The notes: generated from the sequence alone by a model not told the origin. A DNA stretch of 64,000 nucleotides from Nitrosopumilus sp. (GCA_965206745.1 OZ242220.1:1664001-1728000), one strand, 5' to 3'; shown: positions 22,358 through 54,444, counted from the stretch's first letter. A program made the numbers and translations.

Positions 22358-22533
22358 TGAAAATTAAGGTACAAATCTGTCTTAAGTGTTGAACAGTAGG
22401 GCATCCAACGGGATGGAAAGGTTCTGATAAGATACGGTGATCAGACTATTATTTGTGAGCAGAGCAGGCATTATTCAATATACTATTACCACAGTGTAAA
22501 GTATGGAGGAATGGTGTTAAAATGAGAACGATG

Positions 22534-22577
22534 GCTCTGGCCACAAATGATGAACAGAACGCCATGTTTGATGAGTC
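22534..22577. repeat. ~45-bp imperfect palindrome (P site). Copies at 22421..22465, 22534..22577, 23339..23383, 23867..23911, 24430..24474, 43717..43761, 44248..44291 and 47938..47979; half copies at 41891..41916 and 45754..45779; degenerate copy at 1392..1434
   Basis: Consensus gctctgg.cacaaatgRtgaWcWgaWcRcyRt.tttgacYagagc, always intergenic at gene-cassette borders. Confidence 0.75.
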
Positions 22578-22681
22578 CCAGTTATCTTTAGGCATATAAC
22601 CGACTAATTTTGCAATAAAATTATTCATATGATTTGCAGATCCATTTCTGTATGACCAACCAACTAAAACTGGAAAGAATC

Positions 22682-23260
22682 TCAAACTCTAACTCTACGG
22701 TTTTTCACATAATGGATTAGGAAAACTGCCAACATTACAGGCAGTGTCACTATGATTACAGGTAAAAGCAAATATGATTCAGAAGGGTATATTTCCCAAT
22801 AGCATTGTAAACTGTTTTGCTGTATGTAGGACTCATCTTCCTGTAATTGATGAATGCCCCAATAACAGAAAGGAGCACCCTCTACAACCATTCCAAATAT
22901 CATGAGTATCTGGATTGGTATGGTCAAACATATGAGAATTTTGACTATCTTTTTCACATAATGGATTAGGAAAACGTTCAACACTATGGGCATTGTTATT
23001 ATGGTTACAGGTAAAATGAAAAATAATTTAAACAAAGCACCTATCTCCCAAGTACATTCAATTGTTTCAACACTATTCCGATAAAGAAGATTGGAAGAAT
23101 TCCTATCTTCTGTCATATACTGCCCTATCTCATAACAGAAAGGAGAACCAGTAGCCGCCAGTCCAAGCGTCGCAGTCATCTGGATTGGCAGGCTCAAACA
23201 TATGAGAATTACGACTATATTTCTCATGTTAGTCCTTAGAAGGGTTCGAAGAGAGGCCAT
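22682..23260 (-). CDS. Two-TM variable-loop membrane protein, tandem two-domain fusion
   Basis: Two copies of ILICL.(I/L)PIQ...PFCY-(variable)-C.WEI...LPV.I.T.P. Confidence 0.8.
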   Translation of the reverse strand: MASLRTLLRTNMRNIVVILICLSLPIQMTATLGLAATGSPFCYEIGQYMTEDRNSSNLLYRNSVETIECTWEIGALFKLFFILPVTIITMPIVLNVFLIHYVKKIVKILICLTIPIQILMIFGMVVEGAPFCYWGIHQLQEDESYIQQNSLQCYWEIYPSESYLLLPVIIVTLPVMLAVFLIHYVKNRRVRV

Positions 23261-23484
23261 CTATTGTTCACTGCTAGTTTGGATCATTGCTTTGATTTAA
23301 CTGATTCATGATCTTGGCCAAACATAGTGTTCCACTCGACTCTGATTACAAATGATGAACAGAACGCCATGTTTGACCAGAGCCCCAGTTTAGGCATATG
23401 ACTAACTAATTTCCCAATAAAATTATTCACGTGATTTGCAGATCCATATTGTACATGACAGATCAGCTAAAACTGGAAAGAATC

Positions 23485-23763
23485 TCAAACTCTTTTATAG
23501 TTTTTTACAAAATGGATTAGGAAAACGTTCAACACTATGGGCATTGTTATTATGGTTACAGGTAAAACATTATATGATTTAAAAAAAGCATCTATTTCCC
23601 AAGAGCATTGAAAATAGAGGGGTTGTACAGATGCCTCACCTCTTTCATTTGGAGGATCATGATAATAATAACAGAAAGGAGCAGTATGTACAGCTATTCC
23701 CATTATCATGGATATCTGGATTGGTATGGTCAAACATATGAGAATTATGACTATCTTTTTCAT
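23485..23763 (-). CDS. Two-TM variable-loop membrane protein
   Basis: Same framework; loop CYYYHDPPNERGEASVQPLYFQC. Confidence 0.8.
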   Translation of the reverse strand: MKKIVIILICLTIPIQISMIMGIAVHTAPFCYYYHDPPNERGEASVQPLYFQCSWEIDAFFKSYNVLPVTIITMPIVLNVFLIHFVKNYKRV

Positions 23764-24015
23764 GTTAGATTATAGTTGTAAAAATGATCATCTATTATTC
23801 ATTGCTAGTTTGAACCATTGCTTTGATTTAACTTATCCATGGTCTTGGTCAAACTGGTCCACCCGTGCTCTGGCCACAAATGATGAACAGACCGCCATGT
23901 TTGACCAGTCCCAGTTATCTTTAGGTATAGAACTGACTAATTTTACAATAAAATTATTCACGTGATTTGCAGATCCATATTGTACATGACAGATCATCCA
24001 AAACTGGAAAGAATC

Positions 24016-24354
24016 TCAAACTCTAATTCTTCTTCTGTTTATCGCATAATAGATTGAGAAAACTATCAACACTATGGGCAGTGTTATTATGGTTAAAGGT
24101 AAAATTAAATATAATTTAAATAAAGCACCTATTTCCCAAGTACATTTAATTTCTATGTCAGAAAAAACCGCATGATTAGGATTGTAAGAATTCCTATCCT
24201 CTTCTGACATATAATCCCCTCTCTCATAACAGAAAGGAGAACCAGTACCCACCAGTCCAAACGTCATGGCTATCTGGATTGGTATGGTCAAACATATGAT
24301 AATTATGGCTATCTTTTTCGTGTTGGTCCTTAGAAGGGTTGAAAGAGAGGCCAT
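24016..24354 (-). CDS. Two-TM variable-loop membrane protein
   Basis: Same framework; loop CYERGDYMSEEDRNSYNPNHAVFSDIEIKC. Confidence 0.8.
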   Translation of the reverse strand: MASLSTLLRTNTKKIAIIIICLTIPIQIAMTFGLVGTGSPFCYERGDYMSEEDRNSYNPNHAVFSDIEIKCTWEIGALFKLYLILPLTIITLPIVLIVFSIYYAINRRRIRV

Positions 24355-24513
24355 CTGTTATTCACTGTTAATCTAGATCATTGCTTTGATTTAACTGATC
24401 CATGATCTTGGTCAAACTGGTCCACCCGTGCCCTGGCCACAAATGATGAACAGAACACCATATTTGATCAGAGCGATATAAAATATAAAAACTAGAATAG
24501 AGAAATCAAACTG

Positions 24514-26163
24514 ATGTATCTTGCACTTTGTGTGTTGTTGGTAGTAGCATTTGTACCTGCAGTGTATGCCGAACCGTGGAGTCCCTACTCCATAGAACGG
24601 CCACGTGCTGCAGTCTTTGAGATGCCTGACAAGCTTGACGGATTTGCGACAGGACGAGGATGTGACCGCATAGTTCTTCCGGAGGCAAAGACACAAGATG
24701 TATTTGTATATGAAAAAGATGACAAACTTGTAGACCCTACTCGTGACCCTTGGGATGACAATGGCACACTCATTTATGCGTACGATAAAGCCCAACTTTT
24801 AGTCAGTCAGGGAGCAGGCGAGACACTGATAATGCACGGGGATCAGGTGCCACAGTGGACTAGCGTATGCAAGTATGCAGGAAGGAATTATGTTGTAGAT
24901 AATGCAGATTATTACATAAGGAACAGTTCGGGAACCGGACATTTTTTTGATCCATTCACGGGATTTCATCACACTGATTTTAACAGCATAACCAGCAATC
25001 CGTTCTCATCAAACCCCTTTGAGTATATGGGATACAGCTCTAGAGAGTGGCCAGGAAAACTCATAATTCTAACTGATCAGGGATATCAAATGTTTGGCAT
25101 TGCTGCCCGTGGTGCAATGTCTGTAGTGGCAGAGTATAGGCCGCTGGATTCCACGTTAAATCTCAGGGTGGAGGGCATATACAAGCCGTATGTAGGCCTG
25201 CAAATTAGTAATACGCCTGACTTTTTTGACTTTGATTCAGAAAAATACGATGGAGGCATACTAGTCAACGGCCAAGTAACTCCGATAGGACCTGCGTTCA
25301 TTCCTAAACGTGGTGATTCTTTTACAATAGATGTAAAAGATGAGGAATGGGCACGTGCATGTTGGTACTTGCCTTCCTCCACTTGCCTTTCAGTTACTGC
25401 AAACATGACAGAACAGGGATGGTCTGAGCTAAGCCGTGATGCGGTATGGAAAAAGGCATCAGAGTGGTACCATCAGATGTACGACCAGGACTATCTCAAG
25501 GAGTACGGACAGATACCAGAGCCAGACTATAGGCTTTATCTTCCGTTTTCCCTTAAGAACAGAGGGTTGGTGACATATCATGATGCAACACTTGACATAG
25601 AGATACCTCTAAAGATGAATAATAACTATACGTATACAAAAAACTATCCTGACATGGGATGGTGTCGCGCACCAATGGTTCTGGTTGCAAAGTCTTCAGA
25701 AGATCTGCTTGGTGCATGTGTGATGCCAGATACTGCACAGACACTCATTGATAGAAAATGGGCACAAAAGATGCCCGAATTATCAGAGCAAAAACACAGA
25801 GAGCTTGCCCGATTTTTGGCATACTATGGACTGCAGCATGTGCCGGGTACGGCAGACCCGCACGATGCATTCAAGGCAGCCCTTTTGGGACTGCCGCATG
25901 TCGATGACGTCCATGTTCTTGAGACGACGCCAGGATTCTCATACAGGGATAAAGATTATGCCAAACATTACGACCAGACAGAATACAAGGCAATAAAATA
26001 TCTCAAAGAGGCCAAACCGGGATTTCTTGATTCATTGCCCTATATCTGGAACTCGCCTGAGCCGATAGATGATGAAATAGTATGCATGAGAAAAACTAGC
26101 AATTACAAGTACCCTGATGAGGCATGCCCTCCATCTGTACCTGCCATGCTGGAATTACAGTGA
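24514..26163 (+). CDS. Secreted Tyr/Asp-rich protein, paralog of 35587..37269
   Basis: Signal peptide (…VPAVYA); long near-identical blocks with the paralog; C…ACV…L..RKW module. Confidence 0.85.
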   Translation: MYLALCVLLVVAFVPAVYAEPWSPYSIERPRAAVFEMPDKLDGFATGRGCDRIVLPEAKTQDVFVYEKDDKLVDPTRDPWDDNGTLIYAYDKAQLLVSQGAGETLIMHGDQVPQWTSVCKYAGRNYVVDNADYYIRNSSGTGHFFDPFTGFHHTDFNSITSNPFSSNPFEYMGYSSREWPGKLIILTDQGYQMFGIAARGAMSVVAEYRPLDSTLNLRVEGIYKPYVGLQISNTPDFFDFDSEKYDGGILVNGQVTPIGPAFIPKRGDSFTIDVKDEEWARACWYLPSSTCLSVTANMTEQGWSELSRDAVWKKASEWYHQMYDQDYLKEYGQIPEPDYRLYLPFSLKNRGLVTYHDATLDIEIPLKMNNNYTYTKNYPDMGWCRAPMVLVAKSSEDLLGACVMPDTAQTLIDRKWAQKMPELSEQKHRELARFLAYYGLQHVPGTADPHDAFKAALLGLPHVDDVHVLETTPGFSYRDKDYAKHYDQTEYKAIKYLKEAKPGFLDSLPYIWNSPEPIDDEIVCMRKTSNYKYPDEACPPSVPAMLELQ

Positions 26164-26556
26164 TTTTAAAAGATAAGATCATACATCGTCTGCTGTGAGT
26201 TCTGCTGTGCTGCATGAACTATGAGTCTTTGAGGCCATGTTTTCTGCAAGAGATGATTTGGAGAATGGCATTAAAAAAAAGAAAACATGATGAGATGAAA
26301 CCACGATTGCCCGGTATAATGGGATGAAACTAGGCATGAATCAATTTGATTTTGAGTTGGACCAGAGTGTGCTGGAAGTCAAATAATCATCTGAATGGAC
26401 TCAGCAGTAAAGCAGATATCTGCGTAATTGACAAGGTATTATTTTCAATTAATCAAGGGATTGCAAAAAGTTGGCATTTACATGATGTGTGCGTTTTTTT
26501 ACCAACAACAAAATAATTTGATTCATTGCAATTAAATGAATAACTGGAAAATAGGA

Positions 26557-27015
26557 TTAATTTCCAGCAATCCAACGTTCCGGTTCTGTAGTGTGAAGAA
26601 TATCAAATACCGTTCCATTGTAATATGTCAGCGTGCAAGGTCCAATATGAGCAACTGACATTCCCCAATGAATAGTGCCCAATGAACACTCATAGATATG
26701 TTTTTGAAGGTCATAATTTTTTGTTACGTCCCAAGTGGCAATCTCTAAACATCGTCCTATGTATCCTATCTGGATACATCTCTCAAAAATAAAATCATAG
26801 AAACCCCCCGTATATCCCCATCCTCTTTTCTCAAGAATTTCTGCTGATTCAGTCCAAACACAGTGAATTTTGTCACTGTTGAATTTTTTCATGGTGATTC
26901 TATCTCGATCACAATCATATAGACTCTGGTGGTGATCATGAGCATAAGCTGGTATGACAATCATCCCGATAACTGATACTACAAGCAATCCCAGCACAAT
27001 CATTCCAGCCATCAA
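26557..27015 (-). CDS. Secreted Cys-rich protein, tandem duplicate 1
   Basis: Signal peptide …IPAYA; C…HCV…LEKRGWG module; near-identical to 27221..27679. Confidence 0.8.
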   Translation of the reverse strand: MMAGMIVLGLLVVSVIGMIVIPAYAHDHHQSLYDCDRDRITMKKFNSDKIHCVWTESAEILEKRGWGYTGGFYDFIFERCIQIGYIGRCLEIATWDVTKNYDLQKHIYECSLGTIHWGMSVAHIGPCTLTYYNGTVFDILHTTEPERWIAGN

Positions 27016-30378: not shown

Positions 30379-31860
30379 ATGACTAATCTAGTATTTTTTG
30401 GAGCTGGCGCATCAAGACCATTTGGAATCCCAACAATGCAAGCAATGGTAATTGAATTTGAAAAAACGTTAAAAGATGATCATCCGGACCTGTTTCAATT
30501 TTATTCCAAGATAAAAGAGACATTGATTCAAGAATATGGAGAATCAAAAATAGATATTGAATCAATGCTATCTGTAATTAATGGAATTGCTGCAAATACA
30601 AAGCCTACTGAACTAGGCCATTTTGTATTTTATTACTTGGCTGATAATTGCTCTCGTAAGGAATTTCCTTCTGATGAGATAGAACTTGGAAAAAAATTAC
30701 AAACACAGTTACAGGATTTTATAAAAAAAGCATGTAAAATAAATCGAGATGATATTGATAAGATATATCGTAGATCATATTTGCCTTTGTTTGAACACAT
30801 GGGTCCAAGCAAAAAGAATTATGGTGAAGAAGAATTATCATATGATTGGAAAGCCTATACAACAAACTATGATAATATTTTTGAAGGTTTTTGGAACCAG
30901 TATGACTCACCAAATGATCATTTTGAAAAAATTGATGCTTCTGATAATCATTATTTCAATATTAAACCATTAGGAACAGTGCATACTTTTTGCAAATTAC
31001 ACGGATCATTGGATTGGACAAAGGAAGTGAATACACACATAATAATACGAAAAACACATTCAGGGTTTGAACGTATTAAAACAAAAGGTGAAATAATGTT
31101 GTTTCCAATACAACAAAAGGATCTTTACTTGCATCCTTGGTTTACTCTGTTTCAAGACTTGAAATTAGGATTATCACAAAAAATAATATGGTATGTAATA
31201 GGATATGCATTTAATGATGAATTTATTAGAAATGCATTCCAAGAATCACTTGTAGATAATTCTAATAAAAAATTAGTTATAATTAATCCAAAGGCAGAAC
31301 AGATTAAGAATAAATTTCAGGATTCCATCAAAAAACAAATTGACGTATTGCCTATAAAATTTGGCGATAGATTGTTTGAACTACAATTTGAAGATTATGT
31401 CAAAAAAACAAAAACAATAGTCTTAAGATTTTCTAATGAAAATAATCCCGTAGAAATCTATGATATAGCAATAAAAAGCAATCACAATATACAATCATAC
31501 GAGATTCTCAATGATGGTGTGGATGTTTTAGATTCAAATGGAAATATTAATGCTAAATATATGTCTAATACAAATAAAAAATCTATGTATTTTGAAATAC
31601 GAAATCCAAAAGTTGCAAAGATAAAATTAGAATTAAAAATTGATCACATGTATGATGATGAGATTGAATTGTATATTTCAAATAATACTAAAGAGTTGAA
31701 TATGGATATAGATTATGGAGGAATAAGGATTGCAAGTTCTAATGATATAGTACAGGATTATGTGATGGTAGGAGGTACAAAAGGGCGGAAGAATACAATA
31801 TGGATGAAATATCCAATAATATTGGATAAAACAAAATTTTTTGGAAATATTGAAGTGTGA
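30379..31860 (+). CDS. SIR2-like domain defence protein
   Basis: FFGAGAS..FGIP, TTNYD, KLHGSLDW, IGYAFND; unknown beta-rich C-terminus. Confidence 0.85.
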   Translation: MTNLVFFGAGASRPFGIPTMQAMVIEFEKTLKDDHPDLFQFYSKIKETLIQEYGESKIDIESMLSVINGIAANTKPTELGHFVFYYLADNCSRKEFPSDEIELGKKLQTQLQDFIKKACKINRDDIDKIYRRSYLPLFEHMGPSKKNYGEEELSYDWKAYTTNYDNIFEGFWNQYDSPNDHFEKIDASDNHYFNIKPLGTVHTFCKLHGSLDWTKEVNTHIIIRKTHSGFERIKTKGEIMLFPIQQKDLYLHPWFTLFQDLKLGLSQKIIWYVIGYAFNDEFIRNAFQESLVDNSNKKLVIINPKAEQIKNKFQDSIKKQIDVLPIKFGDRLFELQFEDYVKKTKTIVLRFSNENNPVEIYDIAIKSNHNIQSYEILNDGVDVLDSNGNINAKYMSNTNKKSMYFEIRNPKVAKIKLELKIDHMYDDEIELYISNNTKELNMDIDYGGIRIASSNDIVQDYVMVGGTKGRKNTIWMKYPIILDKTKFFGNIEV

Positions 31861-31873
31861 TTTTTGAGAATAA

Positions 31874-35586: not shown

Positions 35587-37269
35587 TCACCGTGATATCA
35601 ACAGTGCAGGATCAGACGGAGGGCATGTCTCATCAGCTAATTTGTAATTACGGGTTTTCTTCATGCATACTATTTCATCATCCACTGGTTCAGGCGAGTT
35701 CCAGAGGTAGTTGCCTCCCAAAGGATGTATGGTAAGCTCTTTGAGATATTTTATTGGAGAGTGTACGGTCTGGTTGTAATATAAGGCATAGTCTTTATCC
35801 CTGTACGAGAATCCAGGCGTCGTCTCAAGAACATGGACGTCATCGATGTGTGGCAGTCCCAAGAGGGCTGCCCTGAATGCATCGTGCGGGTCTGCAGTGT
35901 CTGGCACATACTGCAATCCATAGTATGCCAAAACTTTGGCAAACTCTTTGCGTTTTTGCTCAGATAGTTCGGGTGTCTTTTGTGCCCATTTTCTGTCCAT
36001 GAGGGTCTGTGCAGTGTCTGGCATCACACATGCGCCGTGCGGATCCTCAGAAGACTTTGCAACCAGGACCATCGGTGCGCGACACCATCCCACTTCAGGG
36101 TAATTTTTCGTATACGTGTATTGGTTATTCATCTTTAGAGGTATCTCTATCTCAAGTGTCGCATTACGATATGTCACCAGTCCCTTGGCATCAGGTTCAT
36201 CGTATCGTAGATGGTACTCATAGTCAGGTTCTGGAATCTGCCCATACTCCTTGAGATAGTCCTGATCGTACATCTCATGGTACCACTCTGATGCCTCCTC
36301 CAGTATCTCATCATGGCTCAGCTCAGGCCACCCGTGTTCTGTCATGTTTACCATAACTGAAAGGCAGGCATGCGGCAGACGCAAACAGGGAATCGGAGTG
36401 ACTTTGCCGTTGACTAGTATGCCCCCATCATATTTTTGTGCATCAGGCTCAAAAAAGTTAGGTGTATCAGGCTCAAAAAAAGTAGGTGTATCATGAACTT
36501 TCAGGTTTATAGATGGACTGTATATGCCCTCTACCCTGAGATTTAATGTCAAATCATGTGGCCTATAGTCAGGCACTACAACCATCGCACCATATGTACT
36601 AATGTCAAATCCTCGATATCCCTGGTCAGTCAGAATTGTGATTCGTCCGCGCCAATCGTCAGGATAAGATCCCATAGATTCAAAAGGATTTGATGAAAAA
36701 GGATCGGTGTTATAATAGCTAGAAAAATGTATAAATCTCGTGAATGGATCCCAAAATTTTCCATTTGCTGCTTGATCACGTGTTCTATAATCTTCTCCTG
36801 CTATAATGTAATCCCTGTCTGCATACTTGCATGTACTAGTCCAATGTGGCACCTGATCCCCGTGCATTATCAGGGTCTCACCTACTCCCTGACTGACTAA
36901 AAGTTGGGCATCTCCGTACCGATAAACAGATGTGCCATTTACATCCAGGGATTTATTAGGATCTGCAAGTTCATATACAAATTGATCATATTCTGAATCT
37001 ACCATTGGTCGAACTATGTCGTGACATCCGTATCCACTTGCAAATCCGTCAAACCTGTCGGGCATCTCAAAGCCTGCAACACGGGGGCGATCTATTACCC
37101 ACAACGGCAGTTCAGCATGTACTGCAGGCACAAATGCCAATATCAGCAACATGCAAAGTATTAGATGCATCAATTTACCATTCCTTGTCCATCTGAGCCA
37201 TGATGCTCGGAGAATATGCAGATACGAATAAGGCAGATACAACAAACAAAATGGCAATTTTGGGGCCAC
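35587..37269 (-). CDS. Secreted protein, paralog of 24514..26163 (true start probably MHLILCML)
   Basis: Paralogy; internal 24-bp duplication DTPTFFEP/DTPNFFEP. Confidence 0.85.
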   Translation of the reverse strand: MAPKLPFCLLYLPYSYLHILRASWLRWTRNGKLMHLILCMLLILAFVPAVHAELPLWVIDRPRVAGFEMPDRFDGFASGYGCHDIVRPMVDSEYDQFVYELADPNKSLDVNGTSVYRYGDAQLLVSQGVGETLIMHGDQVPHWTSTCKYADRDYIIAGEDYRTRDQAANGKFWDPFTRFIHFSSYYNTDPFSSNPFESMGSYPDDWRGRITILTDQGYRGFDISTYGAMVVVPDYRPHDLTLNLRVEGIYSPSINLKVHDTPTFFEPDTPNFFEPDAQKYDGGILVNGKVTPIPCLRLPHACLSVMVNMTEHGWPELSHDEILEEASEWYHEMYDQDYLKEYGQIPEPDYEYHLRYDEPDAKGLVTYRNATLEIEIPLKMNNQYTYTKNYPEVGWCRAPMVLVAKSSEDPHGACVMPDTAQTLMDRKWAQKTPELSEQKRKEFAKVLAYYGLQYVPDTADPHDAFRAALLGLPHIDDVHVLETTPGFSYRDKDYALYYNQTVHSPIKYLKELTIHPLGGNYLWNSPEPVDDEIVCMKKTRNYKLADETCPPSDPALLISR

Positions 37270-40013: not shown

Positions 40014-41747
40014 TTATGCAGGATTCGAGATTCGTCCCATGAACAGGATCATTCCACTCTCATCATCCTGTATGACAAATAGAAATGGATGATCGGCGAT
40101 GAATTTGGGTGGGGGTGGGGGGGTGGGTGATACTGATTCAATTGTAGAAATAATAGTAGTTACAGCTGCCGCCTCGGTTCCTTCCTCATTTACCTTTACA
40201 TATGCATCTTGAACTGCCTCGGTTACATGCAGATTCCCACCGTTAGTGGATCCAATGCCTGATAAATCCGCATCACCACTAGAAAAAACATCAGGCATGC
40301 CCATTGCAGTCAGGTGATTACCTAATTTGTAATTTGTTCTTGTCTCAAATTTCGGAATCGAGACTATTACCTCCTGATTCCATAGGTTATCAGTCCACTT
40401 TTGTATCTGTTGGACCGACAGAGACTCTTCAAACTGTCTCATATCCGGATCGTCAGGTAAAATTACCAGCATGGATAACCGGTCACCCTCATATGGCATC
40501 TTTAGTACCTTGGCACCATCTGAATATACATAATTGAACATACTAACAACATTCATAAAATCTGTATTGACACTTTGCGTGTCATCTGTATAAAACTCTG
40601 ATTTTTTTGTATCCTCCTCTGCAAACTGTGTCAACCAGGTTCCCTTGAAATAGATTGCATTGTTTATCACCATTGCTGTATCTCCGTTTACATCACTTTT
40701 TCTTATTACCTCGGTAATCTTGCCGTGGGTTTTCTCAGCAGCCCAATCATTTATTCTATTTATACTGTCATCCTCATCTGAAAAGTTCACTGTCTGTGCA
40801 TCTGCAAGGTATGTGCTCCGTGTAATATCAAGATAGGATTCGTATGGTGCAAACCAGTTTGCAATCCACAGTGCGTTTGCCATATTTAGTGTTGCGTAAT
40901 CATCATCACGATTCAGTGAGGATAGTGCATGGGCTGTGGCGTTGTGTCGTGTGAGTATGTCTGATTCAAATCCAAAGATATCCTCCATCTGCTGTGCTGT
41001 GTTTTCTTTGGCACCCTCGTACAAAAGCGAGAATGCGACATACAAGCTGGCAGGCGAATAGAATATGTTATTGCCTTCTTCTGCATCCAGAATTTGCTTG
41101 TAAAAGTCGACTGCAAATTCATTGTTTGCAGAGGATATGGATTCTGGGATTGTCTGTGTCCCGTTCTGTGATACGGCATCTACTGTAACTAGGGCGTTTG
41201 GAGGTGGTGTTTGGCTCGGGGTAGTAGGAGACGAAGTGTATGTCTGTGGTGTTTGGCTTGGAGCTTCCGGAGACGAGGTGTCTGTCTGTGCTGTTTGGTT
41301 TGAATCTGCAGGGGATAGAGTATCTGTCTGTGCTGTTTGGTTTGAACCCAATTGCTTAACCGGTCCAACCAGCTCCACATGATACGGAATATCACCAAAT
41401 CGTTCCTTCAATCCTGTCATTACATCATTAAACGCATATTCACAATCTTCACATATTCCTATGTATAACGTATCTATTCCATCAATGCTCATGATACCTA
41501 ACATGTTGATAGGTACACCATCAAACACACTTGCAATAGGATCAGTACTATTACCATAGAATACATCACCCATAATGGCATCTGCTTGCAACAATTCATC
41601 AGATATCCCAACGCGTTCAATATAGACAGAATCTTCTTCAGGTATCGTTTGTACTGTTTGTACCGTCTGTACCATTGCTGTTAATCCTATAAACGAGATT
41701 GACACCAATACGGCTGTTAAAATTATTATTTTCTTACTAGATACCAA
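40014..41747 (-). CDS. Serpin (type A N-terminus with acidic CEDC domain and S/T/P linker)
   Basis: NIFYSP, NAIYFKGTW, VNEEGTEAAAVT hinge, FIADHPFLF, ILFMGRI. Confidence 0.95.
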   Translation of the reverse strand: MVSSKKIIILTAVLVSISFIGLTAMVQTVQTVQTIPEEDSVYIERVGISDELLQADAIMGDVFYGNSTDPIASVFDGVPINMLGIMSIDGIDTLYIGICEDCEYAFNDVMTGLKERFGDIPYHVELVGPVKQLGSNQTAQTDTLSPADSNQTAQTDTSSPEAPSQTPQTYTSSPTTPSQTPPPNALVTVDAVSQNGTQTIPESISSANNEFAVDFYKQILDAEEGNNIFYSPASLYVAFSLLYEGAKENTAQQMEDIFGFESDILTRHNATAHALSSLNRDDDYATLNMANALWIANWFAPYESYLDITRSTYLADAQTVNFSDEDDSINRINDWAAEKTHGKITEVIRKSDVNGDTAMVINNAIYFKGTWLTQFAEEDTKKSEFYTDDTQSVNTDFMNVVSMFNYVYSDGAKVLKMPYEGDRLSMLVILPDDPDMRQFEESLSVQQIQKWTDNLWNQEVIVSIPKFETRTNYKLGNHLTAMGMPDVFSSGDADLSGIGSTNGGNLHVTEAVQDAYVKVNEEGTEAAAVTTIISTIESVSPTPPPPPKFIADHPFLFVIQDDESGMILFMGRISNPA

Positions 41748-41930
41748 TGCAAATCAAACATTCTGAAAATATATAACAATGTCGAATGATTTGATCCTGA
41801 AGTTTGGGTGTATTGTTCAGATCACTTGTGGAAGAATTTGAGAACGCTCCAATCTGGCAAGTGAAACCTCCATTCAATTAAACAGTGTACATCTGATCAC
41901 TAATCTTGATCAGAGCCTATCAGTACAGAC

Positions 41931-43595
41931 TTAGGATGCAGGATTCGAGATTCTCCCCATGAACAGGATCATGCCGCTCTCATCATCCTGTATGACAAAT
42001 AGAAATGGATGATCGGCGATGAATTTGGGTGGGGGCGGAGGTACTGAGGTATACACAGATATAATAGTAGTCACGGCTGCCGCCTCGGTTCCTTCCTCAT
42101 TTACCTTTACATACGCGTCCTGAACAGCCTTGCTCACATACAGATTTCCACCTTCAGTGGATACAATGCCTGACAAATCTGCAACACCACTGATAAAAAC
42201 ATCAGGCATTCCCATTGCAATCAGAGGATCATTTAATTGGTATTTTGTTCTTGTCTCAAATTTTGGCATCGAGACTATTAACTCCTGATTCCACAGGTTA
42301 TCAGTCCACTTTTGTATCTGTTGGGCAGACAGAGACTCTTCAAATTCTCTCATATCCGGATCGTCAGGTAAGATTACCAGCATGGACAGCCTGTCACCCT
42401 TGTACGGCATCTGAAGCACTTTAGCACCGTCTGAATGGGTGTAGTTAAATCCACCTCTCATATTCATAAAATCTGTATTGACACTTTGCGTGTCACCTGT
42501 ATAAAACTCTGATTTTTTTGTATCCTCCTCTGCAAACTGTATCAGCCAGGTTCCCTTGAAATAGATTGCATTGTTTATCACCATTGCTGTGCCTCCGTTT
42601 ACATCATTTTTGCCTATTACCTCGGTAATCTTGTCATTGGTTTTCTCAGCGGCCCAATCATTTATCCTCTTTACACTGTCATTTTCATCTGTAAAGTCCA
42701 CTGTCTGTGAATCTGCAAGATATGAGCTTCGTGTAATATCAAGATAGGATTCGTATGGTGCAAACCAGTCTGCAATCCACAGTGCGTTTGCCATGTTTAG
42801 TGTTGCGTAATCATCATCACGGTTCAACGAGGATAGCGCATGGGCTGTGGCGTTTTGTCGTGCAAATGCGTCTGATTCAAACCCAAAGACATGTGCCATC
42901 TGCTGTGCTGTATTTTCTTTGGCACCCTCGTACAAAAGCGAGAATGCAACATACATGCTGGCAGGTGAATAGAATATGTTTTTGCCTACCTCTGTATCTA
43001 GAATTTGCTTGTAAAAGTCGACTGCAAATTGATTATTTGCAGAGGATATGGATTCTGGGATTCTCTGTGGTCCGTTCTGTGATACGGCATCTACTGTAAC
43101 TAGGGCGTTTGGAGGTGGTGTTTGGCTTGAATCTGCAGGGAGTCGAATGCCTGACTGTGCTGTTCCATTGGAATCCATGTACCATGGAGCAGGCAATGGT
43201 TGAGCCGGTGGAATCATCTCCACATAATATGGAATATCGCCAAATCGTTCCTTCAATCCTGTCATTACATCATTAAACGCATATTCACAATCTTCACATA
43301 TTCCTATGTATAACGTATCTATTCCATCAATGGACGCGATACCTAACATGTGAATAGGTACACCATCAAACACACTTGCAATAGGATCAGTACTAGTACC
43401 AAATAATACATCAGTCATAATATGCTCTGCTTGCAACAATTCATCAGATACCCCAACGCGTTCAATATAGATAGAATCTTCTTCTTCAGGTATCGTTTGT
43501 ACTGTTTGTACCGTTTGTACCATTACTGTCAATCCTATAAACAAGATTGACACCAATACGGCCGTTAAAATTATTATTTTCTTACTAGATACCAA
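41931..43595 (-). CDS. Serpin (type A)
   Basis: Same serpin motifs; RCL TTIISVYTSVPPPPP. Confidence 0.95.
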   Translation of the reverse strand: MVSSKKIIILTAVLVSILFIGLTVMVQTVQTVQTIPEEEDSIYIERVGVSDELLQAEHIMTDVLFGTSTDPIASVFDGVPIHMLGIASIDGIDTLYIGICEDCEYAFNDVMTGLKERFGDIPYYVEMIPPAQPLPAPWYMDSNGTAQSGIRLPADSSQTPPPNALVTVDAVSQNGPQRIPESISSANNQFAVDFYKQILDTEVGKNIFYSPASMYVAFSLLYEGAKENTAQQMAHVFGFESDAFARQNATAHALSSLNRDDDYATLNMANALWIADWFAPYESYLDITRSSYLADSQTVDFTDENDSVKRINDWAAEKTNDKITEVIGKNDVNGGTAMVINNAIYFKGTWLIQFAEEDTKKSEFYTGDTQSVNTDFMNMRGGFNYTHSDGAKVLQMPYKGDRLSMLVILPDDPDMREFEESLSAQQIQKWTDNLWNQELIVSMPKFETRTKYQLNDPLIAMGMPDVFISGVADLSGIVSTEGGNLYVSKAVQDAYVKVNEEGTEAAAVTTIISVYTSVPPPPPKFIADHPFLFVIQDDESGMILFMGRISNPAS

Positions 43596-43867
43596 TGCAA
43601 ATCAAACATTCTGAAAATATATAACAATGTCGAATGATTTGACCCTGAAATTTGGGAGTTTTGTCAAGTGTGTTAGACATCAAATATGGATTCTTTGAAT
43701 TCAAACTCTGAGAATGGCTCGGATCATAAATGGTGATCTGATCACTAATCTTGACTAGAACCGAGTGGAACATTGTTTGACCAAGATCATGGATCAGTTA
43801 AATCAAAGCAATGATTCTAGCAGTGAATAATAGATAGCCTTTTTTTCAACCCTTCTAAGGTACTAAC

Positions 43868-44140
43868 ATGAAAAAAATAGTCGTAATTCTCATATGTTTG
43901 ACCATACCAATCCAGATACTCGTGATATCTGGAATAGTTCTAAAGGGTGCTCCTTTCTGTTATATGGGTGCTCCTCCATTACAGGAAGGTATGGCTACAA
44001 CACAGCAATATAGTTTGCAATGCTATTGGGAAATATACGCTTCTGAATCATATTTGCTTTTACCTGTAATCATAGTGACACTGCCTGTAATGTTGACAGT
44101 TTTCCTAATCCATTATGTGAAAAACCGTAGAAGAGTTTGA
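43868..44140 (+). CDS. Two-TM variable-loop membrane protein
   Basis: Loop CYMGAPPLQEGMATTQQYSLQC; flanked by P sites. Confidence 0.8.
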   Translation: MKKIVVILICLTIPIQILVISGIVLKGAPFCYMGAPPLQEGMATTQQYSLQCYWEIYASESYLLLPVIIVTLPVMLTVFLIHYVKNRRRV

Positions 44141-44305
44141 GATTCTTTCCAGTTTTAGTTGATTGGTCATACAGAAATGGATCTTCAAATCATATGAATA
44201 ATTTTATTGCGAAATTATCAGTCAATTATATGCCTGAAGATGACTGGGACTCATCACAAACGGTGATCTGATCACTAATATTGACTAGAGCCTATCAGTA
44301 TCGAC

Positions 44306-45637
44306 TTAGGATGTAGGATTCGAGATACGTCCCATAAATAGAATCATTCCGCTCTCATCATCCTGTATGACAAATAGAAATGGATGATCGGCGATGAATC
44401 TCGGTAAAGGAGGTGGGGCAGATACGATTGGAGAAACAATAATGGTAGTCACAGCTGCCGCCTCGGTGCCCTCTTCATTTACCTTTACATACGCATCATG
44501 AATTGCCTGGCTTACAAACAGATCTGCAAATCCAATGCCTGACAAATCTGCACCACCACGGGTAAAAACATCAGGCATCCCCATACTAGCTAGGGGACCG
44601 TTTAAAGAATATTTTGTCTTTGTCTCAAATTTTGGCATCGAGACTATTACCTCCTGATTCGACAGGTTATCTGTCCACTTCTGTATCTGCTGGGCAGACA
44701 AGGACTCTTCAAACTGTCTCATATCAGGATCGTCAGGCAAAATTACCAGCATGGACAGCCTGTCACCCTTGTACGGCATCTGAAGTACCTGGGCACCGTC
44801 TGAATGGATGTAGTTAAACGCACTTTTCACATTCATAAAATCTGCATTGACGCTGTCTGTGGAGTTTGTATGAAACTCTGATTTTTTTGTATCCTCCTCT
44901 GCAAACTGTGTCAACCAGGTTCCCTTGAAATAGATTGCATTGTTTATCACCATTACTGTATCTATGTGTACATCACTTTTTCTTATTACCTCGGTAATCT
45001 TGTCATTGGTTTTCTCAGCGGCCCAATCATTTATCCTCTTTACACTGCCATCCTTATCATCTCCAAAGTCCAATGTCTGTGCCCCTGCAAGGTAGGTGCT
45101 GCGTGCAATATCCAGATAGGATTCGTATGGTGCAAACCAGCCTGCCATCCACAGTGCGTTTGCCATTTCTAGTGTTGCATAGTCATCATCACGGTTCAAC
45201 GAGGATAGTGCATGGGCTGTGGTGTTTTGTCGTGCAAATGCATCTGATTCAAACCCAAAGACATCCTCCATCTGCTGCGCTGTGTCTTGTTTGGCACCCT
45301 CGTACAAAAGCGAGAATGCGACATACATGCTGGCAGGTGAGTAGAATATGTTTTTGCCTTTTTCTGCATCCAGAATTTGCTTGTAAAAGTCGACTGCAAA
45401 TTCATTGTTTGTAGAGGATATGGATTCTGGGATTGTCTGTGGTCCGTATTGTGATACGGCATCTACTGTAACTAGGGCATTTGGAGGTGGTGTTTGGCTC
45501 GGGGTAGTAGGAGACGAGGTGTCTGTCTGTGCTGTTTGGCTTGGGGCTGCAGGAGACGAGGTGTCTGTAGAACTAAACAATGCAATTGAGGCTGCAACTA
45601 GTACTGCACATATTGCAACAATGACGAGTTTATTCAC
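44306..45637 (-). CDS. Serpin (type B short N-terminus)
   Basis: Serpin motifs; RCL TTIIVSPIVSAPPPLP. Confidence 0.95.
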   Translation of the reverse strand: MNKLVIVAICAVLVAASIALFSSTDTSSPAAPSQTAQTDTSSPTTPSQTPPPNALVTVDAVSQYGPQTIPESISSTNNEFAVDFYKQILDAEKGKNIFYSPASMYVAFSLLYEGAKQDTAQQMEDVFGFESDAFARQNTTAHALSSLNRDDDYATLEMANALWMAGWFAPYESYLDIARSTYLAGAQTLDFGDDKDGSVKRINDWAAEKTNDKITEVIRKSDVHIDTVMVINNAIYFKGTWLTQFAEEDTKKSEFHTNSTDSVNADFMNVKSAFNYIHSDGAQVLQMPYKGDRLSMLVILPDDPDMRQFEESLSAQQIQKWTDNLSNQEVIVSMPKFETKTKYSLNGPLASMGMPDVFTRGGADLSGIGFADLFVSQAIHDAYVKVNEEGTEAAAVTTIIVSPIVSAPPPLPRFIADHPFLFVIQDDESGMILFMGRISNPTS

Positions 45638-45793
45638 GATACAATCACGTATGGCTAGCGCTATATATTGTCCCCATCAGAGACTATAACCCAAAATACA
45701 TGAGAGCCTGTAGAAACAGGCGAGTGAGACCTCCACTCAATTAAACAATGTACATCTGATCACAGTATTTGACTAGAGCCTATCAGTACCGAC

Positions 45794-47107
45794 TTAGGAT
45801 GTAGGATCCGAAATTCTCCCCATGAATAGGATCATGCCGCTCTCATCATCCTGTATGACAAATAGAAATGGATGATCGGCGATGAAGGAAGGTGGTTGCG
45901 GTTGTTCTGACGTAGATTCAATAAGAAGAGCAGTTACAGCTGCTGCCTCTGTTCCTTCCTCATTTACCTTTACATAAGCACCTTGAGTTGCCTTGCTCAC
46001 AAACAGATTCCCACCTGGAGAAATTCCAATCCCTGTCAAATCCGCATCACCACTAGAAAAAACATCAGGCATTCCCATTGCAATTAGATGATCATTTAAT
46101 TGATAGTTTGTCCTTGTCTCAAATTTTGGCATCGAGACTATTACTTTCTGATTTGACAGATTATCAGTCCATTTCTGTATCTGTTGGGCAGACAGAGACT
46201 CTTCAAACTGTCTCATATCAGGATCGTCAGGCAAAATTACCAGCATGGACAGCCTGTCACCCTTGTACGGCATCTTTAGTACCTTGGCACCGTCTGAATG
46301 AGTGTAGCCAAATATATTTTCTTCATTCATAAAATCTGCATTAACACTGTCTGTGGCATCTGTATGAAACTCTGATTTTTTTGTATCCTCTTCTGCAAAC
46401 TGTATCAACCAGGTTCCCTTGAAATAGATTGCATTGTTTATCACCATTGCTGTATCATTGTTTACAGTGTTAGGTCCTATTATTTTTGGAATCTTGCCAC
46501 GAGTTTTTTCTGCCGCCCAATCATTTATTCTATCTACACTGTCAGTCTCATCTTCAAAGTCCACTGTCTGTGAATCTGCAAGGTATGTGCTTCGTGTAAT
46601 ATCAAGATAGGATTCGTATGGTGCAAACCAGTCTGCAATCCACAGTGCGTTTGCCATTTCTAGTATTGCGTAATCATCATCACGGTTCAACGAGGATAGT
46701 GCATGTGCTGTGGCGTTGTGTCGTGCAAATGCGTCTGATTCAAACCCAAAGACATCCTCTATCTGCTGTGCCGTGTTTTCTTTGGCACCCTCGTACAAAA
46801 GCGAGAATGCAACATACAAGCTGGCAGGGGAATAAAATATGTTTTTGCCTGATTCTTCATCCAGAATTTGCTTGTAAAAGTCGACTGCAAATTGATTGTT
46901 TGCAGAGGATATGGATTCTGGGATTCTCTGTGGTCCGTTCTGTGATACGGCATCTACTGTAACTAGTGCGTTTGGAGGTGCTGTTTGGCTTGGGGTAGCA
47001 GGGGATAGGGTGTCTGTCTGTGGTGTTTGGCTTGAGTCCACATAGTACAATGCAACAGTGGCAACGACTAGTACTGTACATATTGCGACAATGATGCCTT
47101 TGTTCAT
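45794..47107 (-). CDS. Serpin (type B)
   Basis: Serpin motifs; RCL TALLIESTSEQPQPP. Confidence 0.95.
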   Translation of the reverse strand: MNKGIIVAICTVLVVATVALYYVDSSQTPQTDTLSPATPSQTAPPNALVTVDAVSQNGPQRIPESISSANNQFAVDFYKQILDEESGKNIFYSPASLYVAFSLLYEGAKENTAQQIEDVFGFESDAFARHNATAHALSSLNRDDDYAILEMANALWIADWFAPYESYLDITRSTYLADSQTVDFEDETDSVDRINDWAAEKTRGKIPKIIGPNTVNNDTAMVINNAIYFKGTWLIQFAEEDTKKSEFHTDATDSVNADFMNEENIFGYTHSDGAKVLKMPYKGDRLSMLVILPDDPDMRQFEESLSAQQIQKWTDNLSNQKVIVSMPKFETRTNYQLNDHLIAMGMPDVFSSGDADLTGIGISPGGNLFVSKATQGAYVKVNEEGTEAAAVTALLIESTSEQPQPPSFIADHPFLFVIQDDESGMILFMGRISDPTS

Positions 47108-47209
47108 TAAACGATTACTCCATATGGCTTATGCTCGACATTGTCCCCCATCAGATATGATAACCCAAAAGATGTGTGCTCCTGCAGAAACAAACGAGGC
47201 ATCAATGCA

Positions 47210-47370
47210 GTTATTATTTTCTTATTAAATATCAATGCAAATCAAGCATTCTGAAAATATATAAGAATGTCGAATGATTTGATCCTGAAGTTTGGGTATA
47301 CTGTTTAGATCACTTGTGGAAGAATTTGAGAACATTTCAATCTGACAAGTGAGACCTCCACTCAATTAAC
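47210..47370 (-). pseudogene. Orphan promoter and first codons of a deleted type A serpin
   Basis: Matches 41722..41880 and 43570..43655, with no serpin body following. Confidence 0.65.
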
Positions 47371-47418
47371 AGAGCCTTGAAAAGATATATGTAAATATTT
47401 TCAAAAAAGAAGATAGCC

Positions 47419-47556
47419 ATGCCAAAGTTCTCGAGCCAACTTGAAGCATTAGAAATTCTAAGCGATGCTGAACTGATCAATGAATTAACACAGAGTAGTA
47501 AAGAAGCTAAAAAAGGCAGGACAGTGCCATGGAAGGAAGTAAAGATTTCTGCATGA
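47419..47556 (+). pseudogene. C-terminal fragment of a RelB/Phd-like antitoxin
   Basis: LEALEILSDAELINELTQSSKEAKKGRTVPWKEVK; upstream in-frame NRALKRYM* is broken by a stop; the stop overlaps the next ATG. Confidence 0.5.
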
Positions 47557-47834
47557 AAAATATAGGCGAAATTCTCATATGTTTAACCATACCACTCCAG
47601 ATATCCCTGATGCCGGGAATAATTCTAAGTGATGGTCCTTTCTGTTATTATGGCAGTCTTCCATCTCCATTTCCAGAGCTTTACAATATTCCCTCTGTCG
47701 AAGTTACTCTATGTTCTTGGGAAATAAGTGCCTTTTTTGAATCATATTCGGTTTTACCTGTAACTATAATAACACTGCCTGTAATGTTGGCAGTTTTCCT
47801 AATTCATTATGTGAAAAACCGTAGAAGAGTTTGA
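47553..47834 (+). CDS. Two-TM variable-loop membrane protein
   Basis: Start MKNIGEIL by alignment; loop CYYGSLPSPFPELYNIPSVEVTLC. Confidence 0.8.
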   Translation: MKNIGEILICLTIPLQISLMPGIILSDGPFCYYGSLPSPFPELYNIPSVEVTLCSWEISAFFESYSVLPVTIITLPVMLAVFLIHYVKNRRRV

Positions 47835-47993
47835 GATTCTTTCCAGTCTTAGTTGATTTGTCATACAAAAATGGATCTTCAAATCATATGAATAATTTTA
47901 TTGTAAGATTACTGATCAGTGATGTGCCTGAACTGAAGCTCTGACAAATGGTGATCAGATCGCTGTATTTGACCAGAGCCTATCAGTACCGAC

Positions 47994-54439: not shown

Positions 54440-54444
54440 CAGTA

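Follow-up and report, generated by a model that had tools for sequence, protein, structure and literature searches.

A dispersed palindrome of 45–47 bp beside serpin and small membrane-protein genes of Nitrosopumilus sp. and its probable derivation from insertion sequence ends

Genes and palindrome copies in the window

The window, a stretch of 64,000 nt from Nitrosopumilus sp., an ammonia-oxidizing archaeon, contained seven full, two half and one degenerate copies of a near-perfect palindrome of 45–47 bp, which agreed with the eight full and two half copies that the earlier note had described at gene borders. The 45-nt consensus with at most 3 mismatches gave 3 matches against 0 expected from 100 shuffles, and the 17-nt core gave 10 matches against a shuffle mean of 2.7. 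An nhmmer profile was trained on nine window copies and used at E < 1e-3. Nine loci in the window were detected at this threshold: full copies centered at 22556, 23361, 23889, 24452, 43739, 44269, and 47957, and half copies, with the right arm only, centered at 41894 and 45757. The degenerate tenth copy scored better on the minus strand (E = 0.02) than on the plus strand (E = 2.7). The copies bordered small membrane-protein genes, serpin genes, and a 549-aa gene. The features are as follows (window positions).

22421–22466, no strand: degenerate palindrome in R-to-L orientation, with an R-type arm and then an L-type arm (nhmmer)
22534–22578, no strand: palindrome with core variant GAACAGAAC; right outer arm replaced by GATGAGTCCC, part of the small-gene 3' flank
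22682–24354, minus: three tandem small-protein genes (192, 92, and 112 aa)
23339–23383, no strand: palindrome between small-gene units, core GAACAGAAC; both flanks common to other copies
23867–23911, no strand: palindrome between small-gene units, core GAACAGACC; both flanks common to other copies
24430–24474, no strand: last palindrome of the 22–24 kb array, with a TATA-like, A/T-rich stretch immediately after it and the 549-aa gene starting 40 nt downstream
24514–26163, plus: 549-aa gene, no Pfam family
40014–49589, minus: five tandem serpin genes (577, 554, 443, 437, and 531 aa; Pfam Serpin, E about 1e-117 each)
41872–41917, no strand: half palindrome, right arm kept; left arm replaced, at most about 6 nt from the center, by the serpin 1 upstream module CCTCCATTCAATTAAACAGTG
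43668–43705 (genome 1707668–1707705), minus: motif 2 copy, a solo end of an IS6-like element, abutting the palindrome at 43717
43717–43761, no strand: full palindrome upstream of the small gene 43868–44140
43868–44140, plus: small-gene paralog (90 aa; 89% repeat match), inverted relative to the 22–24 kb array
44247–44291, no strand: full palindrome separating the small gene from the 3' end of serpin 3; left outer arm replaced by GGGACTCATC
45735–45780, no strand: half palindrome, paralogous to the copy at 41872–41917
47356–47377, no strand: remnant in which only the final 7 nt of a palindrome (CAGAGCC) are left, immediately preceded by the serpin upstream module CCTCCACTCAATTAA (read from the sequence)
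47529–47834, plus: small-gene paralog (101 aa)
47935–47979, no strand: full palindrome, 15 nt past the serpin 5 stop codon

Palindrome copies flanked the small genes at all three places (22682–24354, 43868–44140, and 47529–47834). The small-gene units were paralogs with 54–79% protein identity and lay on both strands. The proteins of 22682–24354, the first of whose genes is an internal double, had a hydrophobic stretch at each end and cysteines on either side of a variable loop, and matched no Pfam family. The serpins had an N-terminal part with variable repeats of 42 nt (repeat families D1–D11), and four serpins had a palindrome copy 15 nt past the stop codon. The 549-aa gene was an inverted paralog of a 560-aa gene at 35587–37269 (minus). 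A near-identical copy of the palindrome at 43717–43761, with the same flank, lay at genome position 1771260.

The arms of the palindrome were 22–23 bp long, with one base between their inner ends and GG tips facing outward. They were asymmetric (L arm, CACAAATGG; R arm, CAAATAYGG), and the asymmetry was conserved among the 34 copies of the genome, with a mismatch at pair 10 from the center in 28 and at pair 12 in 30. The same plus-strand orientation had been claimed throughout; it held for 9 of the 10 window copies, and the copy at 22421–22466 was inverted. The claim that the gene cassette is flipped relative to the site was borne out: the sequence to the left of the copy centered at 23361 recurred as its reverse complement to the right of the copy centered at 43739, with both palindromes reading L to R on the plus strand. 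Some rearrangement junctions map to the palindrome, namely those of the half copies, cut at most about 6 nt from its center, and that of the 7-nt remnant.

Dispersal in the genome and occurrence in relatives

The whole genome was searched with the profile, and 34 loci were found at E < 1e-3. Of these, 25 lay outside the window, and the site is not specific to cassettes. Most were in the flexible 1.60–1.86 Mb region, and those outside the window were mostly single copies. All 34 were intergenic by crude ORF calling, with five in ORFs of 55–120 aa that were taken as spurious. Neighbors included both housekeeping genes and genes for secreted or eukaryote-like proteins, and 24 copies adjoined neither the small-gene nor the serpin family.

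Conservation began and ended at the GG tips. The 80-nt flanks were both unique in 16 copies, one was shared in 14, and both were shared in 4. Since 16 copies had both flanks unique, the 45–47 bp unit itself was dispersed, as a discrete unit, through intergenic DNA genome-wide. All nine profile-detected window copies had at least one 80-nt flank common to another copy, so their amplification accompanied the tandem duplication of genes. The window copies sat beside a serpin and a small membrane-protein gene and were then passively copied by tandem duplication, which gives the window its array-like look. The half copies, with a start-to-start spacing of 3863, equal to the two-serpin duplication unit, belong to this pattern. 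Of the earlier note's reading, the discrete repeat bordering duplicated genes stands, and a site-specific system of cassette shuffling or amplification dedicated to surface proteins is unsupported.

The flip was also found at a locus without cassettes, where the core of the copy at 1632368 was reversed relative to the flank shared with eight copies abutting the same repeat. It is thus a property of the near-palindrome and not of cassettes. All palindrome copies differed and no pair was identical, so there was no sign of current activity. Contigs from public runs were compared with 41700–48100 and gave paralog cross-mapping only, with no alternative arrangement, which is a weak test because the contigs were short.

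The 21-nt core was absent from 40 relatives, which share the neighboring genes at about 80% identity. A collection of 185,579 species genomes and a metagenome collection gave only three lone matches to this core. The metagenome match was inside high-GC sequence, and the other two were in the unrelated organisms Natronococcus and Sulfurimonadaceae, as judged from the match listing alone. Arm variants with the same architecture were present in 8 of the 97 other genomes searched in the genus; 26 further genera, represented by 303 genomes, had none. By these searches, the palindrome is lineage-specific. In another Nitrosopumilus MAG, two copies of the palindrome family flanked a serpin. Species differed in the middle but kept both GGTGATC-N-GATCACC at the center and GGTTCTGG at the outside. 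One locus was compared with the closest genome found; coding DNA there was only about 84% identical, and intergenic DNA could not be aligned.

Transposase of the genome and likeness to IS6 ends

No enzyme of the kinds that a linked recombinase would represent was found in the genome, which is 99.6% complete. There was no match to tyrosine recombinases (PF00589, E ≤ 0.001; the control search matched 14 of 14 genomes) or to the Y1-HUH transposase (PF01797), and family searches found no serine recombinase, TnpB or IS110 transposase. A Pfam scan of 50 window ORFs found no recombinase domain, as had been noted before. Any enzyme acting on the palindrome would have to do so in trans.

The genome had a single intact IS6-like transposase (377 aa, DDE_Tnp_IS240/rve), with a PF13610 score of 38–41 bits against a cut-off of 27. 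Its element of 5,607 bp lay outside the window (C1:1598487-1604093), was atypically long, and carried passenger genes; one palindrome copy was inside it. The ends were inverted over about 57 bp and started with GGTTCTG, and the element was flanked by a perfect target duplication of 8 bp (TTATTTTC). With its DDE_Tnp_IS240 transposase, GG ends, and 8-bp direct repeat, the element belongs to the IS6/IS26 family. About 60 solo ends of this element (motif 2) were scattered over the genome, and about nine directly abutted the palindrome.

According to passages of the IS6 review PMC7986276, IS6 ends have a GG tip with cTGTt and caaa motifs, 8-bp repeats are formed, and MITEs are known. The palindrome arm GGYTCTGGTCACAAAT contains GG, CTGGT, and CAAA, which resemble the end signature of the IS6 family. 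The GGTTCTG tip of the palindrome (GGYTCTG) was the same as the tips of four independently delimited IS6-like elements. In relatives, the ends of the resident IS6-like family, delimited by comparing identical copies, started with GGTTC(T/C), and two end types continued with ...CAAAT..GGGTG(A/T)T, resembling the palindrome arm. The match between the ends of the resident transposase and the arm was limited to the first 7 nt; their gapped score was in the top 3.5–7% of windows and inseparable from background. A profile of the arms gave no significant match to the IS ends of relatives. In five genomes of the genus with arm variants, none of nine inspected loci of about 3 kb had an IS6-like transposase, and the listed positions of IS6-like genes in the genus did not adjoin those of the arms.

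Target-site duplications of 2–9 bp were searched for at 14 offsets in the 34 copies, and only scattered chance matches of 2–5 bp were found. An 8-bp duplication was present in 0 of 34 copies, as were those of 4, 6, and 9 bp, and one of 3 or 5 bp in at most 1 of 34. No 8-mer was common to palindrome copies except through long shared flanks. The defining feature of a MITE is therefore missing, which only intramolecular events of the IS6 type would excuse. Such replicative transposition gives deletions or inversions, with loss of flanking repeats, as sections of PMC7986276 describe.

Taken together, the palindrome is probably a miniature, non-autonomous repeat of 45–47 bp derived from IS ends and not a dedicated shuffling system. 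It is similar to a MITE that lacks an interior or, broadly speaking, to a REP (repetitive extragenic palindrome). Its two inverted arms of roughly 23 bp would correspond to IS6-family terminal inverted repeats. An IS6-like DDE transposase acting in trans would have catalyzed the dispersal, whether the resident enzyme or a relative, since lost, whose ends matched, and intramolecular replicative events of the IS6 type would leave no target duplication. As an inverted repeat in many copies, the palindrome could be a hot spot of recombination, illegitimate or homologous, which would account for junctions near its center. The asymmetric core could be re-set in either orientation, possibly through template switching in the hairpin or gene conversion by another copy in antiparallel alignment; this would account for the flip.

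Like the IS6/IS26 MITEs covered in parts of PMC7986276, the palindrome has many non-autonomous copies and two inverted arms resembling the family's ends, with a GG tip and cTGTt-like and caaa motifs. A related DDE_Tnp_IS240 transposase in an element with an 8-bp target duplication could likewise act in trans in the same genome. The two MITEs named there are 227 and 336 bp long, whereas the palindrome is 45–47 bp and lacks an interior. It also differs in the missing 8-bp duplication and in arms that diverge from the resident element's ends past the first 7 nt.

Other origins considered

It is unlikely that the palindrome is a host binding site or RNA signal, either the operator of a dimeric regulator or a hairpin terminating or stabilizing 3' ends, multiplied because it was useful by these genes. 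The strictly intergenic location, small ORFs taken as spurious aside, agrees with such a signal, as do the 10–12 or so of 34 copies 5–60 nt past a stop codon and the T6 run after several copies. The copy at 24430–24474 is directly upstream of the TATA-like run before the 549-aa gene. The kept center and outer sequences with a variable middle are as protein contacts would predict. End-to-end conservation over 45 bp is long for an operator. Distances to starts and stops vary from 5 to more than 300 nt, and at least four copies are between divergent genes (115551, 1371077, 1765110, and 1849318), where no terminator is needed. There was no compensatory covariation: pairs 7, 8, 16, and 21 showed all four combinations in roughly independent proportions. 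The arms thus decay independently, which argues against a selected RNA hairpin. In 4 of 8 strand tests, the folding of window copies was not better than that of shuffles, and an Rfam search of the window at gathering thresholds gave 0 matches. The absence of the exact sequence from the 40 relatives with the same neighboring genes also stands against a host signal. Judging from position, some copies may have a transcript-end or regulatory role.

Strict REPs are 20–40 bp long and have a GTAG or CGTC head. There is little probability that the palindrome is an element of this type, spread by a since-lost HUH (RAYT-like) or other enzyme, with a coincidental likeness to IS6 ends. Like the RAYT-mobilized REPs and BIMEs of bacteria, it is short, palindromic, and extragenic, has tens of copies and no target duplications, forms BIME-like mosaics with other short repeat modules, and often lies just after genes. 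It differs in its greater length, in having neither head, in its IS6-like tip, and in its host, an archaeon of the Nitrosopumilaceae, whose genome has no Y1-HUH (RAYT) gene. Chance is an unlikely reason for the same 7-nt tip at a fixed position in four independently delimited IS elements. In the broad sense of a short, many-copy, extragenic palindrome, the repeat with its 34 loci is a REP. The terms 'Nitrosopumil' and 'Thaumarch' do not occur in the main text of the RepRanger survey of archaeal REPs.

Very improbable is a trans-acting site-specific recombinase that crosses over at the palindrome and so excises, inverts, reorders, or amplifies cassettes of surface and secreted proteins. Site-bounded units do occur in both orientations with the asymmetry of the site kept on the plus strand, half copies and the remnant are cut as described, flank sequence takes the place of an outer arm at 22534 and 44247, and same-family palindromes flank a serpin in another species. 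Against this, the genome has no tyrosine, serine or Y1-HUH enzyme, most copies adjoin neither gene family, and the flip occurs without cassettes. The two half copies represent one event that was later duplicated. Crossover at the center predicts L-L and R-R hybrid sites, and none was seen; attC, attI, and Pc features were also missing.

The palindrome is not an integron, shufflon or other dedicated cassette system. Like attC sites of integrons and of CALINs, which are attC clusters lacking an integrase, the copies are imperfect palindromes with conserved mismatches, located after genes and 0.5–0.8 kb apart in the 22.5–24.5 kb array. In contrast to attC sites, R'/R'' cores were found at 0 of 10 sites, with GTTRRRY or RYYYAAC within 15 nt of none, as the earlier note had reported. 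The genome has no IntI or other tyrosine recombinase, the copies are also dispersed singly genome-wide, and the genes between sites are mutual paralogs in both orientations and not a one-orientation array of unrelated promoterless cassettes. The main text of an archaeal integron preprint contains neither 'Thaumarchaeota' nor 'Nitrososphaer'. As in shufflons (Rci/sfx), short repeats border segments found in both orientations. The genome differs in having no Rci-type tyrosine recombinase (PF00589), and the repeats are intergenic and dispersed and not inverted sfx sites confined to the 3' end of one gene. The segments here are whole genes with their own flanks and not alternative C-terminal exons of one gene.

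Structure and spread of the palindrome

The palindrome was a near-perfect inverted repeat with a genome-wide consensus of approximately GGCTCTGGTCACAAATGGTGATC-T-GATCACYRTATTTGACCAGAGCC. Arms of 22–23 bp flank a single central base. The mismatches at pairs 10 and 12 are conserved, so the two arms can be told apart; the left (L) arm reads CACAAATGG and the right (R) arm CAAATAYGG. An earlier note had counted eight full and two half copies in the window, all in one orientation on the + strand. The profile search (E < 1e-3) confirmed the palindrome and gave seven full and two half copies; the tenth, at 22421–22466, was degenerate. Nine of the ten window copies ran from L to R, and the copy at 22421–22466 was reversed. 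The 45-nt consensus of that note, with up to three mismatches, matched the window three times, with no match expected.

The profile detected 34 loci in the source genome (1.86 Mb, 41% G+C, rated 99.6% complete), 25 of them outside the window (G000:C1:1664001–1728000). The last 260 kb of the genome (1.60–1.86 Mb) held 24 of the 34. All loci were intergenic by crude ORF calling; five sat in reading frames of 55–120 aa, which were taken to be spurious. The Pfam-annotated neighbours of nine non-window loci included housekeeping genes (inositol-1-phosphate synthase, Fe-alcohol dehydrogenase, F420 ligase, nitrilase-type hydrolase, and rhomboid) and eukaryote-like or secreted proteins (TPR, Fic, CAP, and dual-specificity phosphatase). 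A serpin or one of the small genes, which encode paralogous membrane proteins with a variable loop, adjoined only 10 of the 34 loci.

Table. Features of the window and the IS6-like element of the same genome
Window 2589–13106: Dnd phosphorothioation cluster with DndB, PAPS-reductase-type DndC with small DndD-associated domain, SMC-like DndD, and cysteine desulfurase
After the Dnd cluster: two ParB-like genes, then two genes without a family
Window 13430–21960 and 30379–31860: defence-island content (Mrr_N, DUF2196 + Schlafen/AlbA_2, methyltransferase, DUF4145)
Within these two stretches: SIR2 proteins (767-aa ORC/Cdc6-like–SIR2 fusion, 493-aa SIR2_2)
Window 22.7–24.4 kb: three small genes in tandem
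Window 24514–26163, + strand: 549-aa gene without a Pfam family
Window 35587–37269, − strand: 560-aa gene, inverted paralog of the 549-aa gene, without a Pfam family
Window 40.0–49.6 kb: five serpins in tandem (Pfam E ~1e-117 each)
C1:1598487–1604093, ~60 kb upstream of the window: IS6-like element, 5,607 bp, with inverted ends and target duplication

The 80-nt flanks of the 34 copies were compared all against all. Both flanks were unique in 16 copies, one was shared in 14, and both were shared in 4. Conservation of the palindrome was sharply limited at its GG tips. This limit and the 16 copies with unique flanks indicate that the 45–47 bp unit spread on its own. In all nine profile-detected window copies, at least one flank was common to another copy, as expected if they had been duplicated together with the serpin and small-gene units (repeat families D10, D14, and D16–D20). 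The palindrome is probably a miniature repeat derived from insertion sequence (IS) ends, dispersed between genes, co-amplified with the tandem duplications of the window, and serving as a hot spot of rearrangement, either passively or with help from a transposase.

Another module, GATCACCATTGAACAGTAACTAG-NN-GAGATCACYAATCTTGACCAGAGC (G000:C1:1436271, 659397, 1769213, and the 1371034 region), terminates in a lone right arm, so single arms are also found within other repeat units. The four copies of the small-gene array (window 22534–24474) had the core GAACAGAAC (one had GAACAGACC) in place of GATCTGATC. Two T-to-A changes break the palindrome there, and a 5-nt direct repeat is kept. Slippage or conversion between the two GAWCN units may have produced this variant. 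The palindrome cores GATC and GAAC match target motifs of phosphorothioation in bacteria, which we take to be a coincidence.

A binding site or RNA signal used by the host is a possible but unlikely reading of the palindrome. At least four copies lay between divergent genes. A conserved RNA hairpin was rejected because the two sides vary independently: pair 8 was TA in 15 copies, TG in 9, CG in 4, and CA in 4, and pair 16 was GC in 11, GT in 7, AC in 5, and AT in 2. No covariation was found between the arms. Four window copies, folded on each strand, had z-scores of −0.7 to −3.3, and in half of the strand tests the copies folded no better than shuffled sequence. The window copies had no match in Rfam.

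Relation to insertion sequences and to repeats of relatives

The genome contained one intact DDE_Tnp_IS240/rve transposase (377 aa, C1:1602496–1603626), with a Cys-rich N-terminal region. It is carried by the IS6-like element, which at 5,607 bp greatly exceeds typical IS6 members in length. The inverted ends of this element (~57 bp) begin with GGTTCTGTAACATT, and a perfect 8-bp target duplication, TTATTTTC, borders the element on both sides. Besides the transposase, it contains passenger genes, a Cys-rich ORF of 91 aa, and a single palindrome copy (1602012). Solo ends of the element (motif 2) were more abundant than the palindrome: the genome has ~60 copies of GGGATTTTTTGAATCGGAATAAGATCCGTATTTCAGGTCTCCAAGATTACACAGAACC and a sister type, frequently arranged as tandem pairs. 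A motif-2 end lies immediately next to about nine palindromes, one of them in the window (43668–43705 on the − strand, beside 43717).

Homologues of this transposase were present in 91 of 201 Nitrosopumilaceae genomes sampled, a tally including three flagged unpublished, which contributed nothing else to the analysis. The IS ends of relatives, fixed by comparing identical element copies, were of three types: GGTTCTGTGTAATCT... (genome G087; also beside the gene in G017 and G244), GGTTCTGCCGCAAATGCGGGTGTTAT (G158), and GGTTCCTCCTGCAAAGATGGGTGATTG (G225). The palindrome arm, GG(C/T)TCTGGTCACAAATGGTGATC, has the 7-nt tip of these IS ends and shares the pattern CAAA...GGTGAT with the G158 and G225 types. 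Passages of a review of the IS6 family (PMC7986276) describe IS6 family ends with a GG tip and cTGTt and caaa motifs, 8-bp target repeats after insertion, and MITEs built of both IS6 ends. The same passages describe intramolecular replicative transposition, whose products are deletions or inversions that lack the flanking repeats. GG, CTGGT, and CAAA of the IS6 end signature are present in the palindrome arm. The link to insertion sequences has weak points, the first being that no target duplication flanked any palindrome or any composite of palindrome and motif 2.

Scoring of the arm against IS ends exposed further weak points: the resident element's own ends resembled the arm at the tip only, and the arm profile had no significant nhmmer match to the IS ends of relatives. 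With an ungapped matrix, both ends of one relative's element (L052) ranked first and second of ~6,000 positions, and other elements ranked worse. With a gapped score, the 10 IS ends tested split evenly: 5 ranked among the top 0.5% of windows and 5 among the top 2–7%. A last weak point is that at 10 relatives' loci, 9 of them with arm variants (five genomes), the IS6-like protein had no tblastn match.

It is unlikely that the palindromes and the solo IS ends around them are live substrates of an IS6-like transposase, whose local intramolecular replicative deletions, inversions, and amplifications without target duplications would cause gene families for host interaction to expand and reshuffle. 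If so, the system would be a miniature archaeal counterpart of IS26-driven gene amplification, and the families so expanded would include the secreted serpins and the small variable-loop membrane proteins.

Two other transposases were considered. The genome also has one broken DDE_Tnp_1 gene, 1 kb away from the palindrome at 1756815; it was set aside, and no related ends were seen. At a relative's locus (L072), an rve/HTH transposase lies 22 nt from a palindrome. It was treated as incidental because the other end of that locus has no arm and the source genome holds only broken remnants of the gene, far from any palindrome.

The distribution among relatives was investigated at several lengths. 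The 21-nt palindrome core was absent from 40 relatives. In two very large collections, the 20-nt core gave no more than three lone matches (two in genome_contigs and one in metagenome_contigs), which were taken to be chance. With up to three mismatches allowed, the 23-nt arm occurred in 8 of the 97 other congeneric genomes and in none of 303 from 26 other genera; a control with the reversed pattern gave two matches in all. Most of the relatives' matches inspected had the same palindrome design, with GGTTCTGG... outer parts, GGTGATC-N(1–2)-GATCACC centres, and an A/T tract between, at 1–9 copies per genome. Three loci (in G009 and G425) had a single arm followed by unrelated sequence. A serpin gene in another Nitrosopumilus MAG was flanked by two such palindromes. 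These arm variants and serpin-flanking palindromes indicate that the family is older than this species and was expanded here. When empty sites were sought with 3 kb around the copy at 813 kb in 80 genomes of the genus, the best match was ~84% identical and covered coding DNA only, with the intergenic part unaligned. A strict REP system that has lost its enzyme is a highly doubtful account of this dispersal.

No paper mentioning both 'miniature inverted' and 'Nitrosopumil' was found, and the main text of a survey of thaumarchaeal mobile elements (PMC6563490) did not contain 'MITE'. In the main texts searched, no description of this palindrome was found, and it is a variant of known elements (MITE/REP) not previously described there.

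Junctions and arrangement in the window

The half copies at 41872–41917 and 45735–45780 retained the right arm and were joined to CCTCCAYTCAATTAAACARTG ~3–6 nt left of the centre. CCTCCAYTCAATTAAACARTG is a separate module upstream of nine genes, among them serpins 1, 3, and 5. The half copies therefore mark a junction of tandem serpin duplication, in which the 3' palindrome of one serpin was fused to the upstream module of the next serpin. Their start-to-start spacing of 3863 equals a two-serpin unit, which indicates a single event copied once. At 47356–47377, the same module was joined to the final 7 nt of a palindrome. Together with the half copies, this remnant shows that breakpoints do fall in the palindrome. 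The longer shared module ...ACTTTACAGACGAGTGAAA-CCTCCAYTCAATTAAACARTG, as read on the strand opposite the genes, was found at window 18641, 37320, 41867, 45730, and 49682 and at four other genome loci, and may be a common promoter or leader of a co-regulated gene set.

The flip of cassettes relative to the site was confirmed, since the flanks cgagtggaaca... and ...gggactcatc adjoin opposite site ends at 22–24 kb and 43–44 kb. The flip also occurs without cassettes: the R arm faces motif 2 in eight adjacent copies and the L arm in the copy at 1632368. The asymmetric core could have been re-set with unmoved flanks by gene conversion from a copy aligned antiparallel, or alternatively by template switching within the hairpin. 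Both would be simple enough for a near-perfect palindrome with 34 copies.

In agreement with the earlier note, none of the 10 sites had an attC core within 15 nt, and a scan of 50 window ORFs revealed no recombinase domain. Genome-wide family searches for Phage_integrase, Resolvase, Y1_Tnp, TnpB zinc-ribbon, and IS110 were negative, while every control matched in known genomes. A Phage_integrase-family (XerA-like) gene was not found in this genome, rated 99.6% complete. The L-L and R-R hybrid sites that a recombinase crossover at the centre would produce were not seen. Site-specific shuffling of palindrome-bounded cassettes by a system acting in trans was largely not borne out, with 25 of 34 loci outside the window, window copies co-duplicated, and no classical recombinase in the genome, and it is very improbable. 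At first sight the locus resembles a new cassette system; ruling this out spares a false lead.

Polymorphism was checked with public data. Among the sixteen public runs listed as containing part of the locus, none was an RNA run; contigs of four runs were placed on 41700–48100. These contigs were short (130–540 nt), and the traced joints came from paralogs or other palindrome copies. For example, the 24.4-kb locus accounted for the joint of 47911 to 43775, and the copy at 1756815 for the loose ends at 47946/47982.

Host-interaction genes and the flexible region

The 45–47 bp palindromes resemble IS ends, are restricted to one genus of the Nitrosopumilaceae, and reach 34 copies in one genome. 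They are concentrated in a flexible region with defence systems (Dnd and SIR2) and expanded serpins. If these palindromes promote the duplication and inversion of genes for host interaction, they would contribute to the diversification of such symbiont genomes. The ammonia-oxidising archaeon is probably sponge-associated. Expanded secreted serpins and DNA phosphorothioation are listed in passages of PMC6790972 as adaptations of sponge-associated ammonia oxidisers, and the gene content of the window fits that picture.

All serpin relatives in a species-level genome collection were from Nitrosopumilaceae (Nitrosopumilus and Cenarchaeum MAGs). The small-gene proteins (~90 aa) have hydrophobic stretches at both ends, and two conserved cysteines (PFCY...C.WEI) enclose a variable loop. 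In tblastn they matched nine genome stretches. Six lie in the window and one at 1771 kb; the remaining two, at 1457 kb, are the pieces of one split copy. The 549-aa and 560-aa genes lie ~9.4 kb apart with aligned blocks 73–86% identical, and no palindrome copy adjoins the latter.

The N-terminal parts of the serpins contained 42-nt (14-aa) tandem repeats at 41151–41360, 43104–43177, 45476–45549, 46967–47082, and 49134–49553. These numbered ~1 to ~10 copies and accounted for most of the length differences (437–577 aa). The stretch at window 49958–56613 had ~50% G+C against 30–43% around it and encoded an 861-aa HerA/AAA_10-like ATPase and six ORFs without a family; it may be an integrated element.
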